From contig OZ024749.1 in the NCBI GenBank assembly GCA_964016885.1, positions 3,224,001 to 3,288,000 of the forward strand: 64,000 nt of DNA. Direction: 5' to 3'. Positions 6,761-31,651 of the stretch are shown here, in pieces; the stretch's first letter is position 1; the number at the start of each line of letters is the position of its first letter. Source of the stretch: Eledone cirrhosa (taxonomy: Eukaryota). The position numbers and the translations under genes are program-made. The notes under the pieces are model-generated. The model saw nothing but the letters and a program-made list of their open reading frames with translations, had not been told where the DNA came from and did not search any database.

Positions 6761-6820
<60 letters not shown>

Positions 6821-6824
<4 letters not shown>

Positions 6825-7207
6825 ATAAATGCTCTGAAATAGCGATATATATGTGAATATAGACATAGAATATTCGAAAATATTCTGTATGTTTATAATA
6901 AACATTTTGAAGACCTAATCGCTATAGAATAGAATACGTCACGTATTACAATTAGATTCTCGATAAAAGCAAGGGAAGTAATCTACGCGTTTCATTCTCG
7001 TTAGAAATCATCAGGACTACATATCCAGTGCTTTTATCGAGAATGACACAGCTAGAGACTTATAGAATACTTAGCTGTGTACAGGAACTGGTTTGAAAGA
7101 GCGGTTGCCGGTCCGGCAGAAATTAGAAATTGGAATAAATGCTCTGAAATAGCGATATATATGTGAATATAGACATAGAATATTCGAAAATATTCTGTAT
7201 GTTTATA
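6821..7207 (-). mobile_element. Inverted ~1.25 copies of the 310-bp unit
   Basis: Reverse complement of the array unit (tggaataaatgctc at 6821 and 7131). Starts directly after (TA)n. Confidence 0.9.
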
Positions 7208-10200
7208 TTTTCGAATATTCTATGTCTATATTCACATATATATCGCTATTTCAGAGCATTTATTCCAATTTCTAATTTCTGCCGGACCGGCAACCGCTCT
7301 TTCAAACCAGTTCCTGTACACAGCTAAGTATTCTATAAGTCTCTAGCTGTGTCATTCTCGATAAAAGCACTGGATATGTAGTCCTGATGATTTCTAACGA
7401 GAATGAAACGCGTAGATTACTTCCCTTGCTTTTATCGAGAATCTAATTGTAATACGTGACGTATTCTATTCTATAGCGATTAGGTCTTCAAAATGTTTAT
7501 TATAAACATACAGAATATTTTCGAATATTCTATGTCTATATTCACATATATATCGCTATTTCAGAGCATTTATTCCAATTTCTAATTTCTGCCGGACCGG
7601 CAACCGCTCTTTCAAACCAGTTCCTGTACACAGCTAAGTATTCTATAAGTCTCTAGCTGTGTCATTCTCGATAAAAGCACTGGATATGTAGTCCTGATGA
7701 TTTCTAACGAGAATGAAACGCGTAGATTACTTCCCTTGCTTTTATCGAGAATCTAATTGTAATACGTGACGTATTCTATTCTATAGCGATTAGGTCTTCA
7801 AAATGTTTATTATAAACATACAGAATATTTTCGAATATTCTATGTCTATATTCACATATATATCGCTATTTCAGAGCATTTATTCCAATTTCTAATTTCT
7901 GCCGGACCGGCAACCGCTCTTTCAAACCAGTTCCTGTACACAGCTAAGTATTCTATAAGTCTCTAGCTGTGTCATTCTCGATAAAAGCACTGGATATGTA
8001 GTCCTGATGATTTCTAACGAGAATGAAACGCGTAGATTACTTCCCTTGCTTTTATCGAGAATCTAATTGTAATACGTGACGTATTCTATTCTATAGCGAT
8101 TAGGTCTTCAAAATGTTTATTATAAACATACAGAATATTTTCGAATATTCTATGTCTATATTCACATATATATCGCTATTTCAGAGCATTTATTCCAATT
8201 TCTAATTTCTGCCGGACCGGCAACCGCTCTTTCAAACCAGTTCCTGTACACAGCTAAGTATTCTATAAGTCTCTAGCTGTGTCATTCTCGATAAAAGCAC
8301 TGGATATGTAGTCCTGATGATTTCTAACGAGAATGAAACGCGTAGATTACTTCCCTTGCTTTTATCGAGAATCTAATTGTAATACGTGACGTATTCTATT
8401 CTATAGCGATTAGGTCTTCAAAATGTTTATTATAAACATACAGAATATTTTCGAATATTCTATGTCTATATTCACATATATATCGCTATTTCAGAGCATT
8501 TATTCCAATTTCTAATTTCTGCCGGACCGGCAACCGCTCTTTCAAACCAGTTCCTGTACACAGCTAAGTATTCTATAAGTCTCTAGCTGTGTCATTCTCG
8601 ATAAAAGCACTGGATATGTAGTCCTGATGATTTCTAACGAGAATGAAACGCGTAGATTACTTCCCTTGCTTTTATCGAGAATCTAATTGTAATACGTGAC
8701 GTATTCTATTCTATAGCGATTAGGTCTTCAAAATGTTTATTATAAACATACAGAATATTTTCGAATATTCTATGTCTATATTCACATATATATCGCTATT
8801 TCAGAGCATTTATTCCAATTTCTAATTTCTGCCGGACCGGCAACCGCTCTTTCAAACCAGTTCCTGTACACAGCTAAGTATTCTATAAGTCTCTAGCTGT
8901 GTCATTCTCGATAAAAGCACTGGATATGTAGTCCTGATGATTTCTAACGAGAATGAAACGCGTAGATTACTTCCCTTGCTTTTATCGAGAATCTAATTGT
9001 AATACGTGACGTATTCTATTCTATAGCGATTAGGTCTTCAAAATGTTTATTATAAACATACAGAATATTTTCGAATATTCTATGTCTATATTCACATATA
9101 TATCGCTATTTCAGAGCATTTATTCCAATTTCTAATTTCTGCCGGACCGGCAACCGCTCTTTCAAACCAGTTCCTGTACACAGCTAAGTATTCTATAAGT
9201 CTCTAGCTGTGTCATTCTCGATAAAAGCACTGGATATGTAGTCCTGATGATTTCTAACGAGAATGAAACGCGTAGATTACTTCCCTTGCTTTTATCGAGA
9301 ATCTAATTGTAATACGTGACGTATTCTATTCTATAGCGATTAGGTCTTCAAAATGTTTATTATAAACATACAGAATATTTTCGAATATTCTATGTCTATA
9401 TTCACATATATATCGCTATTTCAGAGCATTTATTCCAATTTCTAATTTCTGCCGGACCGGCAACCGCTCTTTCAAACCAGTTCCTGTACACAGCTAAGTA
9501 TTCTATAAGTCTCTAGCTGTGTCATTCTCGATAAAAGCACTGGATATGTAGTCCTGATGATTTCTAACGAGAATGAAACGCGTAGATTACTTCCCTTGCT
9601 TTTATCGAGAATCTAATTGTAATACGTGACGTATTCTATTCTATAGCGATTAGGTCTTCAAAATGTTTATTATAAACATACAGAATATTTTCGAATATTC
9701 TATGTCTATATTCACATATATATCGCTATTTCAGAGCATTTATTCCAATTTCTAATTTCTGCCGGACCGGCAACCGCTCTTTCAAACCAGTTCCTGTACA
9801 CAGCTAAGTATTCTATAAGTCTCTAGCTGTGTCATTCTCGATAAAAGCACTGGATATGTAGTCCTGATGATTTCTAACGAGAATGAAACGCGTAGATTAC
9901 TTCCCTTGCTTTTATCGAGAATCTAATTGTAATACGTGACGTATTCTATTCTATAGCGATTAGGTCTTCAAAATGTTTATTATAAACATACAGAATATTT
10001 TCGAATATTCTATGTCTATATTCACATATATATCGCTATTTCAGAGCATTTATTCCAATTTCTAATTTCTGCCGGACCGGCAACCGCTCTTTCAAACCAG
10101 TTCCTGTACACAGCTAAGTATTCTATAAGTCTCTAGCTGTGTCATTCTCGATAAAAGCACTGGATATGTAGTCCTGATGATTTCTAACGAGAATGAAACG

Positions 10201-10952
10201 CGTAGATTACTTCCCTTGCTTTTATCGAGAATCTAATTGTAATACGTGACGTATTCTATTCTATAGCGATTAGGTCTTCAAAATGTTTATTATAAACATA
10301 CAGAATATTTTCGAATATTCTATGTCTATATTCACATATATATCGCTATTTCAGAGCATTTATTCCAATTTCTAATTTCTGCCGGACCGGCAACCGCTCT
10401 TTCAAACCAGTTCCTGTACACAGCTAAGTATTCTATAAGTCTCTAGCTGTGTCATTCTCGATAAAAGCACTGGATATGTAGTCCTGATGATTTCTAACGA
10501 GAATGAAACGCGTAGATTACTTCCCTTGCTTTTATCGAGAATCTAATTGTAATACGTGACGTATTCTATTCTATAGCGATTAGGTCTTCAAAATGTTTAT
10601 TATAAACATACAGAATATTTTCGAATATTCTATGTCTATATTCACATATATATCGCTATTTCAGAGCATTTATTCCAATTTCTAATTTCTGCCGGACCGG
10701 CAACCGCTCTTTCAAACCAGTTCCTGTACACAGCTAAGTATTCTATAAGTCTCTAGCTGTGTCATTCTCGATAAAAGCACTGGATATGTAGTCCTGATGA
10801 TTTCTAACGAGAATGAAACGCGTAGATTACTTCCCTTGCTTTTATCGAGAATCTAATTGTAATACGTGACGTATTCTATTCTATAGCGATTAGGTCTTCA
10901 AAATGTTTATTATAAACATACAGAATATTTTCGAATATTCTATGTCTATATT

Positions 10953-10957
<5 letters not shown>
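7206..10957 (+). mobile_element. Tandem array of 12 apparently identical 310-bp units, each with a type I hammerhead (retrozyme-like)
   Basis: tcgaatattctatgtc recurs at 7211, 7521, 7831 and so on to 10931 (period 310). No ORF. Ends in (TA)n. Confidence 0.9.
7356..7441 (+). ncRNA. Minimal type I hammerhead ribozyme (repeats every 310 bp up to about 10850)
   Basis: gtagtc CTGATGA t ttct aacg agaa t GAAA cgcg TA gattac. Helix III is the palindrome ACGCGT. Helix I is extended by ttctcgataaaagca/tgcttttatcgagaa. Predicted cleavage after 7414. Confidence 0.85.
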
Positions 10958-11002
<45 letters not shown>

Positions 11003-18762: not shown

Positions 18763-18866
18763 GTCCTTCATCAGTGATCTTCCAACCTTCATTGGTATTT
18801 CATCGCTTTAAAGATCATATACCTCCGGTTGGTGCGAGCAACGGCTAAAGAAAGTCGTTGGGACAC
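18763..18866 (-). ncRNA. Non-circularly permuted hammerhead-like ribozyme with k-turn, family A copy 1
   Basis: Minus strand reads gtgtcc-caacgact ttcttt agccgttg-ctcgca-ccaacc-GGA-ggtaT A tgatc-tttaa-agcgat GAAA tacc-AATGAA-ggttgg-aa-gatca CTGATGA a ggac. All hammerhead core nucleotides are present. Helix I is tgatc/gatca and helix III is ggtat/atacc. Predicted cleavage lies between 18818 and 18817. Confidence 0.75.
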
Positions 18867-19405
18867 ATAAATAAGGGGAACGAGCGAGACTGTAAACAAT
18901 CAAAGATGGTAATGCAACGAAAAGAGAGGAAGAAAGAGTCAAGTCCCAGATTTCTATGAATATAAGTTCGGTGAAATCGTAGACGAGAGAGAATAAAGAC
19001 CATCAAACCTAGTCGAAATGTGAGCAAGGAAGGAATTCCGCACAGGTCAAACGGGAGGAAGAAGGAGTCTAGTCCCTGAATTCGGTGAACATAAGTTCTG
19101 TGAAATCGTAGACAAGAGAGAAAAAAGTAACAACCAGCCTGGTCAAGCGTGCGTGAGAAAAGAATTACGCACAGGCCAAACGGGAGGAAGTAGGAGAGGA
19201 AGTAGCAGAGAGTGAGTGAGTGAAGGGTGAGGAAGAGGCTAACAGAGAGAGTGACTGTTAGAGAGGGTAAAGGGAGGTCAAAGATACAGAGAAAGAGGAA
19301 GCAGTAAGAACGAAATAGACAGGTCACTACAGAGGAAAATATATGTGCGAATATTAAAACTAACTTGCTGCGTGGTTGCAAATGTGTTACATAAGAATAA
19401 AGTTT

Positions 19406-19509
19406 GTCCTTCATCAGTGATCTTCCAACCTTCATTGGTATTTCATCGCTTTAAAGACCATATACCTCCGGTTGGTGCGAGCAACGGCTAAATTAAGTCG
19501 ATAGGACAC
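19406..19509 (-). ncRNA. Permuted hammerhead-like ribozyme, family A copy 2
   Basis: Direct repeat of copy 1, 643 bp away. The helix I change tgatc to tggtc keeps pairing through G-U. Confidence 0.7.
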
Positions 19510-19870: not shown

Positions 19871-19968
19871 GTGTCCCAACGACTTTCTTTAGCTCGCACC
19901 AGCCGTAGGTATATGATCTTTAAAGCGATGAAATATCAATGAAGGTTGGAAGATCACTGATGAAGGAC
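19871..19968 (+). ncRNA. Permuted hammerhead-like ribozyme, family A copy 3 (inverted, part of the 5' hairpin deleted)
   Basis: ctcgca ccagcc gta ggtaT A tgatc tttaa agcgat GAAA tatc aatgaa ggttgg aa gatca CTGATGA aggac. The stem substitutions give G-U pairs. Confidence 0.65.
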
Positions 19969-23104: not shown

Positions 23105-25560
23105 TGTGTTCCTGGGATTTTTCCACGGACTATGATAGAAGATGCTGGAGATTCTGGTTGTGGGAGGATGGATTGCTGGAGCGATGGATCAGTGGTGTAA
23201 AATCCTGGTATGGTAGTGAGGAAGTGGAGAGTAGTGGGGTGCGTGCGCAACAGGAAGTGGTCAGAGTTACGGCACTGGTCAGAGGATCAAGGCAGGGCGA
23301 AGAGGTGAGAGGAAGGAGATAGCAGTAGGGAGTTGACAGCAGGCAGTAGTGAGAGAGGCTGACAGATATAGAGAGGCCTGTATGGGGTGTGGAATGTGTG
23401 TATGTGTGTGCGGAGGTGCCGTGGACACGGAAGGAGAGGGGTAGGTGTGATGGGGGGGGGGAGAGGGCGGCGGTGTGGGGAGTTGGCGTGTATATTAGTG
23501 GAGGTATTAGTGGGATGTGTGTGACTGGGGTGTTGAGGTGAGAGAAGGTGTTAGGGACGGTAGGAGGGAGTGTAGTGTACTGGTGTGTGTGTGCGTGTTT
23601 GGATATGAGTGTGTGTCTGTGTGTGATAGAGTGGGTGTTATTATTACCAGTAATGGGGAGGGGCTGCAATGCGGGAGTGTTAGTGGGGGTTAGTGGTGGT
23701 AGTGTGTGTGGAGTCGGTGGTGTATCGGTGCGTACGTAGGTGTGGGTGATCGTATGTGTGATGGTGTTTGTTCGTGTGGGTGTGGTGCGGGGCAAGGTGA
23801 GTTGGACTGGGGGGTGTGTGAGTAATATTAGTGGTGGGGTGGTCAGATGTGGGGTCTGTAGGGTGAAGCTGGTGTGCTGCTCGACGATGAGGCGAGCGGC
23901 GTTGGACTTATGGCATTGGATCAGGCCATAGACTGTGGCCTGGTGGGCGAATATCCAGGGATTCCAAAGTGGCGGGTGATGGGGAACGCCCGCCGAGACG
24001 AATATCGCGGAGGTGCTCCGTGAACTGATCCACCAGGTCACGTCCCGTCTGTCCAAAGTAGGTTGCAATGCACTCCGTGCAGCGAAGTCCATAGACGAGG
24101 TTGGAAGAGGTGCAGCGAAGGCATGCCGAACAGAGAGAGAGTGGCCGTTGGGACCCTGGAAGGTGGTGGTGTCGGTGTTGTGGGGGCAGGTGTGGCAGCG
24201 AGGTCTGGAGCAGGGAAGGGAACCGGGGGTGGTGGGGTAGCGAGCTGTGGACGAGGAGGAACCGGAGATTACGCGCGCGTTTGAAGGAGGGGAGGCTGGG
24301 TATGGAAAGATGGGAGAGGTGGAGGTCTCGGACAGGAGGCGTCGGAAGGGGCGAAGGATGATGCGGTGGGGCGGGAGACAGCACAGGCGCGAGCCTAGGC
24401 GACGTGGACAAGGGAGGGAGGGTAACCTCTCCGGATGAATGGCTGACTAGAGAAAAGGCCTGGGACTCGAAATCAGCATCTCGGCTGCAGAGACGGTTGA
24501 TCCGGAGGAGTTGGGAGTAGAGAATGGAGTGTTTGGTGTGTGTAGGGTGGGGGGAGGTGAAGTCGAGGTAGGAGTGGGAGTCGGTGGGTTTGAAGAAGGC
24601 GGAGGTGACGAGGGAGCGCTGGGAGGGGTCGATGGTGACGGATATGTCCAAGAAGTGGACGTGGGTGATGGAGATAGAGGTGGTGAAGTGGAGGGAGGGG
24701 TAGTAGGAGCAGAAGAAGGAGAGAAAGGAGTCGAGCCGTTCTCGGGTGAGGGTCGTGGCTCCGATACAATCGTCGATGTAACGACCTTACAGTTCTGGCG
24801 TGGAGCTGGGCAAATATTTGTGCCTCAACAGGCCAACGAAAAGGTTGGCATAGATTGGGCCCATGCTAGTGCCTATGCTACCCCCGTGATCTGTTGGTAA
24901 AACTCCCCCGAGAAATAGAAGCAGTTAAGGGTGAGGACCAGCTCAGCGAGGCGAAGGAGGATGGGGGTGGAGGAGATGGGGGAGGGGCGAAGTTCGAGGT
25001 AGTGCCGGAGGGCACGTAGGCCGTCGGCGTGGGGGTTGACTCTGTAGAGGGACTTAATATATTGGGTGAAGAGGAGTGTGTGTGGTCCGGGTGGGAAAGT
25101 GAGGGAGTAGAACTGGCGAAGGGCGTGGTTGGGGATGTGGGAGGGGATGGAATCAATAATGGTGGATATGAGTTCTGTGAGACAGTTGCAAGCGGAGACG
25201 ATGGGGCGGCCTGGGTTGTCGAGTTTGTGGGTCTTTGGGGGTGCGGGCGTGCGGATGATAGATGGGAAGCGGTGGGAGTGGGGGCATGAGGCAGGAGGAG
25301 ACGAGGTGTTGGGTGAGGGCGGAATCTTGCTTTTGGTAGAGGCGTGTGGTGTCGGACGGTAGAGGGCGGTAGAAGAAGGGTGTTACGGAGCTACCTGAGG
25401 GCTTCGGCCGCGTAGAGGTCTGTGCGCCACACCACCGCGGCGCCTCCCTTCTCCGCCGGTTTGATGACGATGTCGTCGCGGCTACGGAGGGAGAGGAGGG
25501 CGAGGAATTCGCCGCGTGTGATGTTATGCAGTTTGGAGCGGCGGCGGAATTCAAGCGATA
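23105..25560 (-). mobile_element. Penelope-like retroelement, 5'-truncated and frameshifted (RT plus C-terminal GIY-YIG endonuclease)
   Basis: Motifs DIVIKPAEKGGA, GTSMGPIYANLF, RYIDD (about 24769-24783), FLDISV, FKPTDSHSYLDFTSPHP..SQLLRINRLCS and CTSSNLVYGLRCTECIATYFGQTGR..EH. Bounded by (TA)n. Confidence 0.92.
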
Positions 25561-25583
25561 CATATATATATTTATACATATAT

Positions 25584-25641
<58 letters not shown>

Positions 25642-25645
<4 letters not shown>

Positions 25646-25987
25646 GGGAACCAGAAAATTGCTTATTGTGATCCACCTCGTGGTTAAGAAAGCCAGCTTC
25701 ATGGATGGTTTTAACGTACGGTTAGGGGTAACTCTACAAGTTTGTAAGAAATCCGTTCAATTTTGGAGTATAAAGTAGAAAAGAGAAAACGCAGGTAAGC
25801 ATTAAGAGAAGTATTAAATCCAGGTATTTACGACCGCTTCATTGGTAAGTGCTACCTTATATTGCTATACTGCAAATAGCTGCCACTCAATTATAATTGT
25901 TGTTCACATCCAAATTTTCAAAAAATGAAACGGTCGTAAATACCTGGATAAAATTCTTCTCTTAATGCTTACCTGTGTTTTCTCTTT

Positions 25988-30332: not shown

Positions 30333-30445
30333 ATTCATTTCTACAGTTACATTTTCAAGAGTTAATGTTACTAGGAACGGTTCTATTAATAATAGAACTG
30401 TTTCTAGTAACATTAACTCTTGAAAATGTAACGGTAGAAATGAAT
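30333..30445. repeat. 113-bp near-perfect palindrome
   Basis: attcatttctacagttacattttcaagagttaatgttactag...ctagtaacattaactcttgaaaatgtaacggtagaaatgaat. Confidence 0.9.
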
Positions 30446-31651
30446 CAAATTGCCCTTTACATAATAATTGCCGAGATAAAAACTTACTATACAAATGCAT
30501 AGTAAAAACTAGAGATAAAATATATAACCATATAGCAGCCACTTCTATAACATTTAAAGAACGCTGGTATAATCATAAATATATATTTAATAGATCCGAT
30601 AAAAAATGTTCTACATCACATTCACATCTAATTTGGTACTTAAAGAACAATAATATTGACTATTCAATCTCTTGGGGAACGATTTCGAAAGCATCCTCAT
30701 ACCGAAATGTGGCTCTCTCAAGAATCTGTCATTTGGGTATTGAAGACATTTTTTATATACTTACCTGCCAAAACTCTATCAAATTAAAGAAAACAATGTT
30801 CAGCTCCTGCAGACATCGCCAAAAAATGACTTTTAATCTATAGTATAAAAATCACTTATTCACATTCTATATGTCTTCACTATTCTTCTGTCGATGCTTA
30901 GTTGTGATTTATAAATTATATGTTTCCTTTCATGTAATATTTTTACAAATTATTTTACAAATGATATTCTTTTCCAATTGATATTCTTCTTACTGCTTTT
31001 TTCATTGATATTTTTTATATTTTTTAATTGATATTTCTTAATTGATATTTCTTAATTGATATTTTGAAATATATCATTTTTCATTTTTCTAAATACACTC
31101 ATGATGCCTGTAATCATATTTTCTTCCTAATTGACTATATAGATAATATCTAAATGCATATATAAAAGAAAATCTCAGCTTTGAAAAAATATAATATAAA
31201 ATAACTTATAATCATATAAAATAATAATATATAAAATTTTCTCAACATACATTTCGCATTTTTTTAAGTAAATTCTAAAAGAAATGACAGATCTAACATA
31301 AATAGTGTAACTAACAAACATTGGAGTTATCTTTTCCTTTTCATTTTCTTTTTTAACTATAATCTAGCACGCATAAACATCTTCTCTTCTTAACAACATA
31401 AATACTAAAGTCTCTATAATTTTCGTTAACTTAATACTTTTCCGCAAACATCCATGATTTCAGCAAACAGGAGGAGTAGTTGGCTTTGATAAGCATCAAT
31501 AAATGCGAAACAAGGTCTTGTCAGCTTTATCTCCCCTGTTTGCTGAAAATTAAAGTACGTGAGTCTGTCACTACTCTAAAACAATAGCATAAGGTCTTCG
31601 AAATGCTTTTAATTAAGCATACAGTGTATTGCAAAATACACTATATATACA

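Follow-up and report, generated by a model that had tools for sequence, protein, structure and literature searches.

A conserved kink-turn-like loop joins stem III to a second helix in a rearranged hammerhead ribozyme of an Eledone cirrhosa genomic repeat

Hammerhead ribozymes of type SGC, as described for HRIMA-1 and an SGC variant (Eckert et al. 2023, PMC10085705), run in the order cleavage site, GAAA, CUGAUGA, with a short linker between stem I and the strand that precedes GAAA and an extra nucleotide after A9. They contain a helix that continues straight into stem I, and a short purine linker connects this helix to the stem II side. Constructs of this type cleave in cis at 0.007-0.19 per minute, and Eckert et al. 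noted that some of them have a direct connection from the end of stem III to the I-II helix, yet the two lie far apart in the crystal structure (PMC10085705). In about 50 and 33 aligned rows viewed by eye, the published motifs end at that helix and start at stem III, so that they contain no two-stranded loop there, and their stem II strand continues unbroken up to GAAA. They come from metatranscriptomes, and the paper states that none of its RNAs, one GCS candidate excepted, derives from the genome of a known organism. Simple kink-turns (k-turns) such as Kt-7, Kt-23 and SAM-I combine a 3-nt bulge with G1b.A1n and A2b.G2n pairs and C-G at -1b/-1n, accept A.G or U.G at 3b.3n, and include the U2n variants of Kt-23 (PMC5061560, PMC2790904).

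Retrozymes and the pseudo-LTR hammerheads of Penelope are non-coding tandem units with one hammerhead each and a short tail (PMC7229834), and the retrozymes so far described have units of 150-450 bp and type I hammerheads. Penelope-like elements leave partial tandem copies, a tail and an inverted, 5'-truncated neighbour, and use microsatellite targets (bioRxiv 10.1101/2021.04.23.441226); animal retrozymes have been proposed to derive from them (bioRxiv 10.64898/2026.07.22.740005). Within the literature searched, which held few subscription papers, we found no hammerhead with a k-turn and no four-way-junction hammerhead or retrozyme of this kind; type-SGC or non-circularly permuted hammerheads were represented by the 2023 paper and by papers that mention them once or twice.

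Here we describe an internal loop on the minus strand of a 64,000-nucleotide window of Eledone cirrhosa DNA (the window being the whole stretch analysed). The RNA that holds the loop resembles type SGC in block order, in its short stem I linker, in the extra nucleotide after A9, and in a helix that runs directly into stem I and is joined to the stem II side by a short purine linker. Aligned with HRIMA-1 by eye, this helix (termed the NC helix) holds the place of the SGC I-II interaction helix, its non-bulged strand CCAACC standing where that helix has its 3' strand and its partner strand lying upstream rather than downstream. The link from stem III to this helix, absent from the published motifs, is here two-stranded and closed by the candidate k-turn, and the RNA is open instead in stem II: GGAC pairs about 60 nt upstream of GAAA and GCGA pairs with an upstream UCGC. 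It also differs in being a genomic repeat. Unlike the known simple k-turns, the loop lies inside a hammerhead-type ribozyme whose stem III would serve as the C helix, and its 3b.3n pair drifts from lineage to lineage among seven states. The k-turn is a known motif; what appears to be new is its position, in a genomic repeat, as the closing element of a rearranged hammerhead whose GAAA block is split. We put the probability that the loop is a true simple k-turn with an architectural role, closing a ring of helices, at roughly 70%.

Architecture of the ribozyme and its internal loop

A sequence-only reading of the window had pointed to a k-turn-like motif on the minus strand, and such a motif is present and conserved far beyond chance. 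The bulged strand, AUACC-AAU-G-A-A-GGUUGG (18798-18782), pairs with the non-bulged strand, CCAACC-G-G-A-GGUAU (18832-18819), so that the internal loop (18832-18782, minus) sits between hammerhead stem III and the 6-bp NC helix. The bulge is AAU (L1-L3, 18793-18791) and is followed by G1b.A1n (18790/18824), A2b.G2n (18789/18825) and A3b.G3n (18788/18826), the bulge and b positions together spanning 18788-18793 and the n positions 18824-18826, with C-G at -1b/-1n. The NC helix is formed by CCAACC (18827-18832) and GGUUGG (18782-18787), the latter entering stem I with no linker. In sequence, the loop has the features that define a simple k-turn, i.e., a bulge followed by GA, A1n with G or U at 2n, flanking helices and C-G at -1b/-1n. 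At window composition, the probability that one loop matches G1b, A2b, A1n and G or U at 2n by chance is about 0.009.

Around the loop, the parts of a hammerhead can be assigned on the minus strand. Stem III pairs 18794-18798 with 18819-18823, the latter including U16.1, and stem I pairs 18775-18781 with 18811-18817. By analogy, cleavage is predicted after A17 of AUA (18817/18818); among 100 copies position 17 is A in 68, C in 30, and G and U in one each, and so not G in 99/100. A UAAA linker (18807-18810), itself part of the pattern used to collect copies, leads from stem I to helix c as the site-to-GAAA link does in type SGC. Helix c pairs GCGA (18803-18806), which one variable nucleotide follows, with UCGC, which together with a 1-nt linker into the NC helix occupies 18833-18837. 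The core consists of GAAA (G12-A15.1, 18798-18801) and CUGAUGA with one extra nucleotide after A9 (18767-18774). The extra nucleotide is A in 53, G in 15, C in 11 and U in 11 of 90 copies, and the G that follows it is kept in 85/90 with no internal-branch change. That G opens the strand GGAC (18763-18766; likely G10.1 and stem II), which forms helix a with GUCC (18861-18864), about 60 nt from GAAA. Hairpin b (18839-18860), helix a, helix c and the core make up a four-way junction.

These helices covary. In an alignment of 35 hand-picked copies, 90.5% of cells in the six helices were paired, vs 28-49% when the strands were slid, and cells with double changes numbered 134, vs 40.7 in shuffles that ignore relatedness (0/500) and 11-36 after sliding. 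Counted by pairs, 14 had a double change, which was not above the shuffles (44/500). Both strands changed in 5/6 pairs of the NC helix. Stems I and III both show covariation: stem III was paired in 94.9% of cells, with G-C replaced by A-U in 7/35 copies, and stem I in 90.6%, with double changes at two pairs. Hairpin b was paired in 93.1% of cells with double changes at three pairs, and helix c showed U-A to A-U in 7/35 copies. Helix a was only 72.9% paired in this alignment because its register shifts by one base; with 0 or 1 extra nucleotide permitted, 4/4 pairs formed in 69/90 copies, in the forms GGAC/GUCC, GGAU/AUCC and GGAA/UUCC. GAAA and CUGA stay 22-23 nt apart even though the sequence between copies turns over. 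An exact core (CUGANGA, GAAA, and UH with A15.1-U16.1) was present in 81/100 copies, GAAA having been part of the search pattern, and core, stems I and III and kink were all intact in 42/100. Free-energy folding, a method that cannot model pseudoknots, recovered the NC helix and hairpin b but missed stem I and helices a and c, so that the complete structure was not favoured (z = -1.47).

The assignment of helix a bears on how far the ribozyme is rearranged. Helix a is probably stem II, because the standard hammerheads of this genome use the same stem II (an extra A, then GGAC/GUCC) and a viroid hammerhead likewise has an additional base between A9 and G10.1 (PMC3705267). In the alternative, with helix c stacked on the core, the extra nucleotide would pair with the base before GAAA, and this pair forms in 56/81 copies and fails in 25. 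The literature searched held no precedent for a break between position 11.1 and G12. The rearrangement goes further than the sequence-only reading had it, since the invariant G after CUGAUGA-N pairs with the upstream GUCC.

Rfam, at its gathering threshold, had no match in the 64-kb window. With the limit relaxed to E 5, a C/D-box snR66 candidate at 18774-18818 (E 0.18, 26/65 bits) emerged and was rejected: it uses the stem I strands and the core CUGA. Similarly weak snR66 matches fall on all three copies of the family to which the locus belongs, family A (18774-18818 (-), 19417-19461 (-) and 19913-19957 (+)), and are taken as chance.

Conservation of the loop across genomic copies

A descriptor search of the window returned six rows, namely five copies of the same layout and one unrelated. 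Besides the locus itself (copy A1), these are copy A2, with the same k-turn sequence, at about 19406-19507 (-); copy A3, inverted and decayed, at about 19874-19968 (+); a family C copy at about 37729-37828 (+), with bulge CGA, C-G at 3b.3n, U2n and C3 changed to U; and a family B copy at about 51126-51226 (-), with U.U at 3b.3n, U2n and one stem III mismatch. The variants quoted earlier for families B (-51137) and C (+37818) and for A3 (+19957) are all there, with the proviso that A3 has decayed. Part of its upstream hairpin (hairpin b) is deleted, and it stands out at 2n: because 48/48 copies of the main A cluster have G there, the U of A3 most likely arose in that copy alone. Families B, C and E, for their part, have U2n as a lineage state. 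Two CUGACGA copies (+29527 and -22845) were considered for family C and rejected as standard-order hammerheads.

To collect copies without regard to the kink, an anchor pattern that ignores all kink positions and includes GAAA was scanned across the 3.0 Gb genome. It gave 6716 exact matches, and the reversed-pattern control gave 0. GA followed after exactly 3 nt in 6335/6716 anchors (94.3%), [G/U]A stood at 2n,1n in 5898/6716 (87.8%), and the catalytic CTGA was found at its expected spacing in 5827/6716 (86.8%). The kink GA and [G/U]A are as conserved as the catalytic CUGA.

The first 100 of the 6716 matches listed, all on one contig, were examined position by position. G1b was present in 95, A2b in 97 and A1n in 91, all three together in 84, and the triple was absent in 16/100 copies, a rate like that of decay at core positions. 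Position 2n was G in 73 copies and U in 22, L3 was U in 86, -1b was C in 94 and -1n was G in 91. Once 8 copies with broken flanking helices were excluded, the remaining 92 formed 25 clusters, 8 of them with at least 2 members, at a mean between-cluster distance of 0.39; GA and A1n were the majority state in 8/8 multi-copy clusters. On a tree of 90 copies, built with the kink columns left out and 10 broken or truncated copies dropped, internal branches carried one change at 1b and none at 2b, 1n, -1b or -1n. The corresponding numbers were 0-2 at core positions, 2-4 at NC positions, 7 at L1 and 9 at 3b. In family E, 13 copies found by similarity, and hence a biased set, had G1b in 13, A1n in 13, A2b in 11 and U2n in 11.

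All copies come from one genome and one shared ancestor, with family A contributing about 60% of those sampled, so copy counts are not independent. Three contig sets from one sample, in which the variants listed for 18782-18832 fell at 3b and at one stem I position, give no independent support. Poor conservation of the bulge and GA across copies had been named as what would speak against the motif; the opposite was found, and the match to the k-turn consensus (3-nt bulge, GA, A1n, and G or U at 2n) holds across lineages. The fixed adenines and the choice of G or U at 2n match the pattern of natural k-turns as given in PMC5061560 and PMC2790904, at the level of sequence. Outside this genome, 13 pattern matches in metagenome contigs and 10 in viral contigs were judged to be chance, as 0/23 form stem III and stem I fully, and blastn against phages gave no match.

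Proposed closure of the ring and competing readings

Both strands continue from stem III into the NC helix, and the NC helix runs straight into stem I; stem III, the NC helix and stem I therefore form a closed ring through the core. At a rise of 2.8 A per base pair, a straight stem III plus NC helix would span 39.2 A, one kinked to the 50-degree included angle of k-turns (PMC5061560) 19.4 A, and stem I 19.6 A. The estimate is a crude triangle that leaves out helix width, twist and core geometry. Because a straight helix cannot close the ring, a sharp two-stranded bend would be needed for folding in cis. Stem III would serve as the C helix of the k-turn and the NC helix would stand in for the helix by which type-SGC hammerheads connect stems I and II. 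The kink would supply a bend of about 120 degrees, and the resulting 105-nt domain would then fold and cleave in cis. The earlier proposal that the kink makes the permuted topology feasible in cis gains from the estimated distances (19 A with a 50-degree kink vs 39 A straight), the bend itself being a prediction. The accompanying proposal, that the end of helix III connects to helices I and II through linkers of 0-2 nt, agrees with 0 nt to stem I and 1 nt to UCGC, but UCGC/GCGA is only one arm of the junction.

How readily a given copy would kink may depend on its 3b.3n pair. Under published folding rules, which come from a Kt-7 background (PMC5061560), 50/100 copies are predicted to fold in Mg2+ alone (U.G 34, A.G 12, C.A 3, C.U 1), 14/100 are predicted not to fold with ions alone (C-G, G.U, A-U), and 36/100 lie outside the rules consulted (A.A 20, U.U 14, U.C 2). 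Families B, C and E join U2n with U.U, C-G or G.U at 3b.3n. U2n is the commonest state of Kt-23, and in T. thermophilus Kt-23 it depends on U.G at 3b.3n (PMC2790904). Unaided kinking of the U2n lineages is doubtful, and A2b-U2n might there be an ordinary pair; because they have no U.G at 3b.3n, these lineages would need either the ring itself or a protein to kink. Rescue of an impaired k-turn by tertiary context is documented for SAM-I (PMC5061560).

The loop might instead serve mainly to bind a protein of the L7Ae family (15.5K/Snu13 or kin), which would gate cleavage or stabilise or localise the unit RNA. L3 is U and G1b is kept in most copies (86/100 and 95/100), the 14/100 copies with a Watson-Crick or G.U pair at 3b.3n are predicted not to fold with ions alone, another 14 have U.U, and all 16 Kt-7 variants at 3b.3n fold with L7Ae (PMC5061560). 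L7Ae contacts G2n according to the same paper, yet families B, C and E have U at this position; family C has A at L3; and the largest family has U.G or A.G at 3b.3n, both of which fold in Mg2+, while tertiary context alone can rescue an impaired k-turn (PMC5061560). We consider a mainly protein-binding role unlikely, and from sequence protein gating is the weaker proposal next to the architectural role, which is the common denominator because half of the copies are predicted to be ion-folding and three lineages lack G2n. The two are not exclusive. Binding of 15.5K/Snu13, raised in the earlier reading, is possible on sequence grounds and not favoured; as an addition to the architectural role it is plausible, most so in family D. 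There the non-bulged strand carries CUGA and the bulged one AUGAUG, which we take to be a box C/D-like pair.

Another arrangement would do without a ring-closing kink. The ribozyme could work as a strand-swapped dimer of tandem units, as in amphibian retrozymes, with the loop as a flexible element or a modest bend. Tandem pairs are common here (13 among 100 matches), dimeric action is documented for axolotl retrozyme hammerheads (PMC7229834), and three crossing helices would hamper folding in cis. The axolotl dimers, however, offset a short stem III (PMC7229834), whereas stem III here has 5 bp and an extension; published SGC ribozymes cleave in cis (PMC10085705); and a dimer offers no ground for fixing A1n, A2b, the 3-nt bulge and the arm lengths. 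We regard dimeric action as very unlikely. It is also highly unlikely that the loop is kept for some other reason, such as recognition by the partner reverse transcriptase or another non-canonical motif, and bears a mere likeness to a k-turn, or that the RNA is a non-cleaving relic. The ribozyme does lie at the 3' end of insertions (34/100 copies end within 45 nt of the core), and the split of the stem II strand from GAAA could impair catalysis, but 1b, 2b, 1n, -1b, -1n and the bulge length match the k-turn pattern, the variable sites are those that vary in natural k-turns, and the core nucleotides and position 17 are kept across lineages.

A bolder version of the architectural reading is possible but doubtful: a four-block topology beyond the six permutations held to be possible, with the stem II strand split off from GAAA and helices I, II and III joined at both ends into an active cage that the k-turn closes, present in more than 6,700 copies of a cellular genome, in which lineages with a poorly folding kink would cleave only when bound by the host's 15.5K/Snu13. 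If true, this would be a natural protein-gated hammerhead that times the processing of retro-element RNA.

The repeat element, its surroundings and significance

The ribozyme sits in a retrozyme-like repeat with units mostly of 500-680 nt. In being tandem, non-coding units with one hammerhead each and a short tail, these resemble retrozymes and Penelope pseudo-LTR hammerheads (PMC7229834); they differ from the retrozymes described in their length and S-G-C order. At the locus, one tandem unit measures 643 nt from the predicted cleavage site of copy A2 to that of A1 (18818-19460 (-), cores at -19417 and -18774). Of the 13 same-strand tandem pairs among the 100 matches, 11 were spaced 502-679 nt; in each of 9 inverted pairs the 3' ends pointed outward, and in none inward. 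A microsatellite lay within 110 nt downstream in 73/100 copies, falling into two 3' end classes, one within 45 nt (34/100; near 24 nt from the core) and one at 46-110 nt (39/100). The marks of Penelope-type insertion, i.e., an inverted 5'-truncated copy, a tail and a microsatellite target, are present, as in Penelope-like elements (bioRxiv 10.1101/2021.04.23.441226). Under the architectural reading, the repeat would be a non-autonomous, retrozyme-like element. Its tandem transcripts would be cut to unit length by the ribozyme, and a Penelope-type reverse transcriptase would copy these RNAs back into (TA)n sites.

The open frame of the family A unit had no Pfam match (E 0.001). Among the frames listed for the flanks, no long ribozyme-linked coding frame was recognised, six frames were without a Pfam match, and no autonomous partner was found. 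A rod-like, viroid-type fold of the 643-nt unit was rejected, its folding showing no unusual stability (z = -0.86). The family A unit contains a 129-nt internal duplication (81% matches) at 18926-19196. A 201-codon stop-free hydrophobic frame runs along the ribozyme strand at 18848-19450 (-) and occurs in many copies, again with no Pfam match; it is probably a by-product of pyrimidine richness. Two diverged copies within 30 kb of the window (L139:724 (+) and L141:4261 (+)) keep the 3-nt bulge and GA and would be missed or barely caught by the anchor pattern. The window region seems denser in copies than the genome average. A repeat search of the whole window was dominated by microsatellites.

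Other hammerheads and repeats lie nearby. At 7205-10963 (+), twelve identical 310-bp tandem units each carry a standard-order hammerhead-like core, adjoined by an inverted partial copy at 6814-7207 (-); the array looks like a very young type I retrozyme array. Further standard-order hammerheads occur at -6408, +20550, +42896, +56918 and -50694 and in L002, L021 and L025, several with an extra base after A9. The one at -6408 has the extra A and the GGAC/GUCC stem II of family A, which may hint at how the rearranged form arose. Broken frames at 23133-25756 (-), 30424-30840 (+) and L012:2215-3120 (-) look by eye like pieces of Penelope-type reverse transcriptase or GIY-YIG, and those tested had no Pfam match at E 0.001. 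A near-perfect 298-nt palindrome, its arms 1 nt apart, lies at 48670-49266.

A conserved k-turn at the stem III link offers an answer to the question that Eckert et al. raised about non-circularly permuted hammerheads. The finding would place a ribozyme class known from contigs of environmental RNA in a high-copy genomic repeat, whose many naturally evolved lineages are a ready covariation set, and the split GAAA block would break the assumption that this block is uninterruptible. For L7Ae-responsive RNA switches, too, a hammerhead that carries its own k-turn is a natural starting point, even if the host does not put it to such use. Most likely the k-turn lets the rewired RNA fold back on itself, and this would explain how rearranged ribozymes fold at all.
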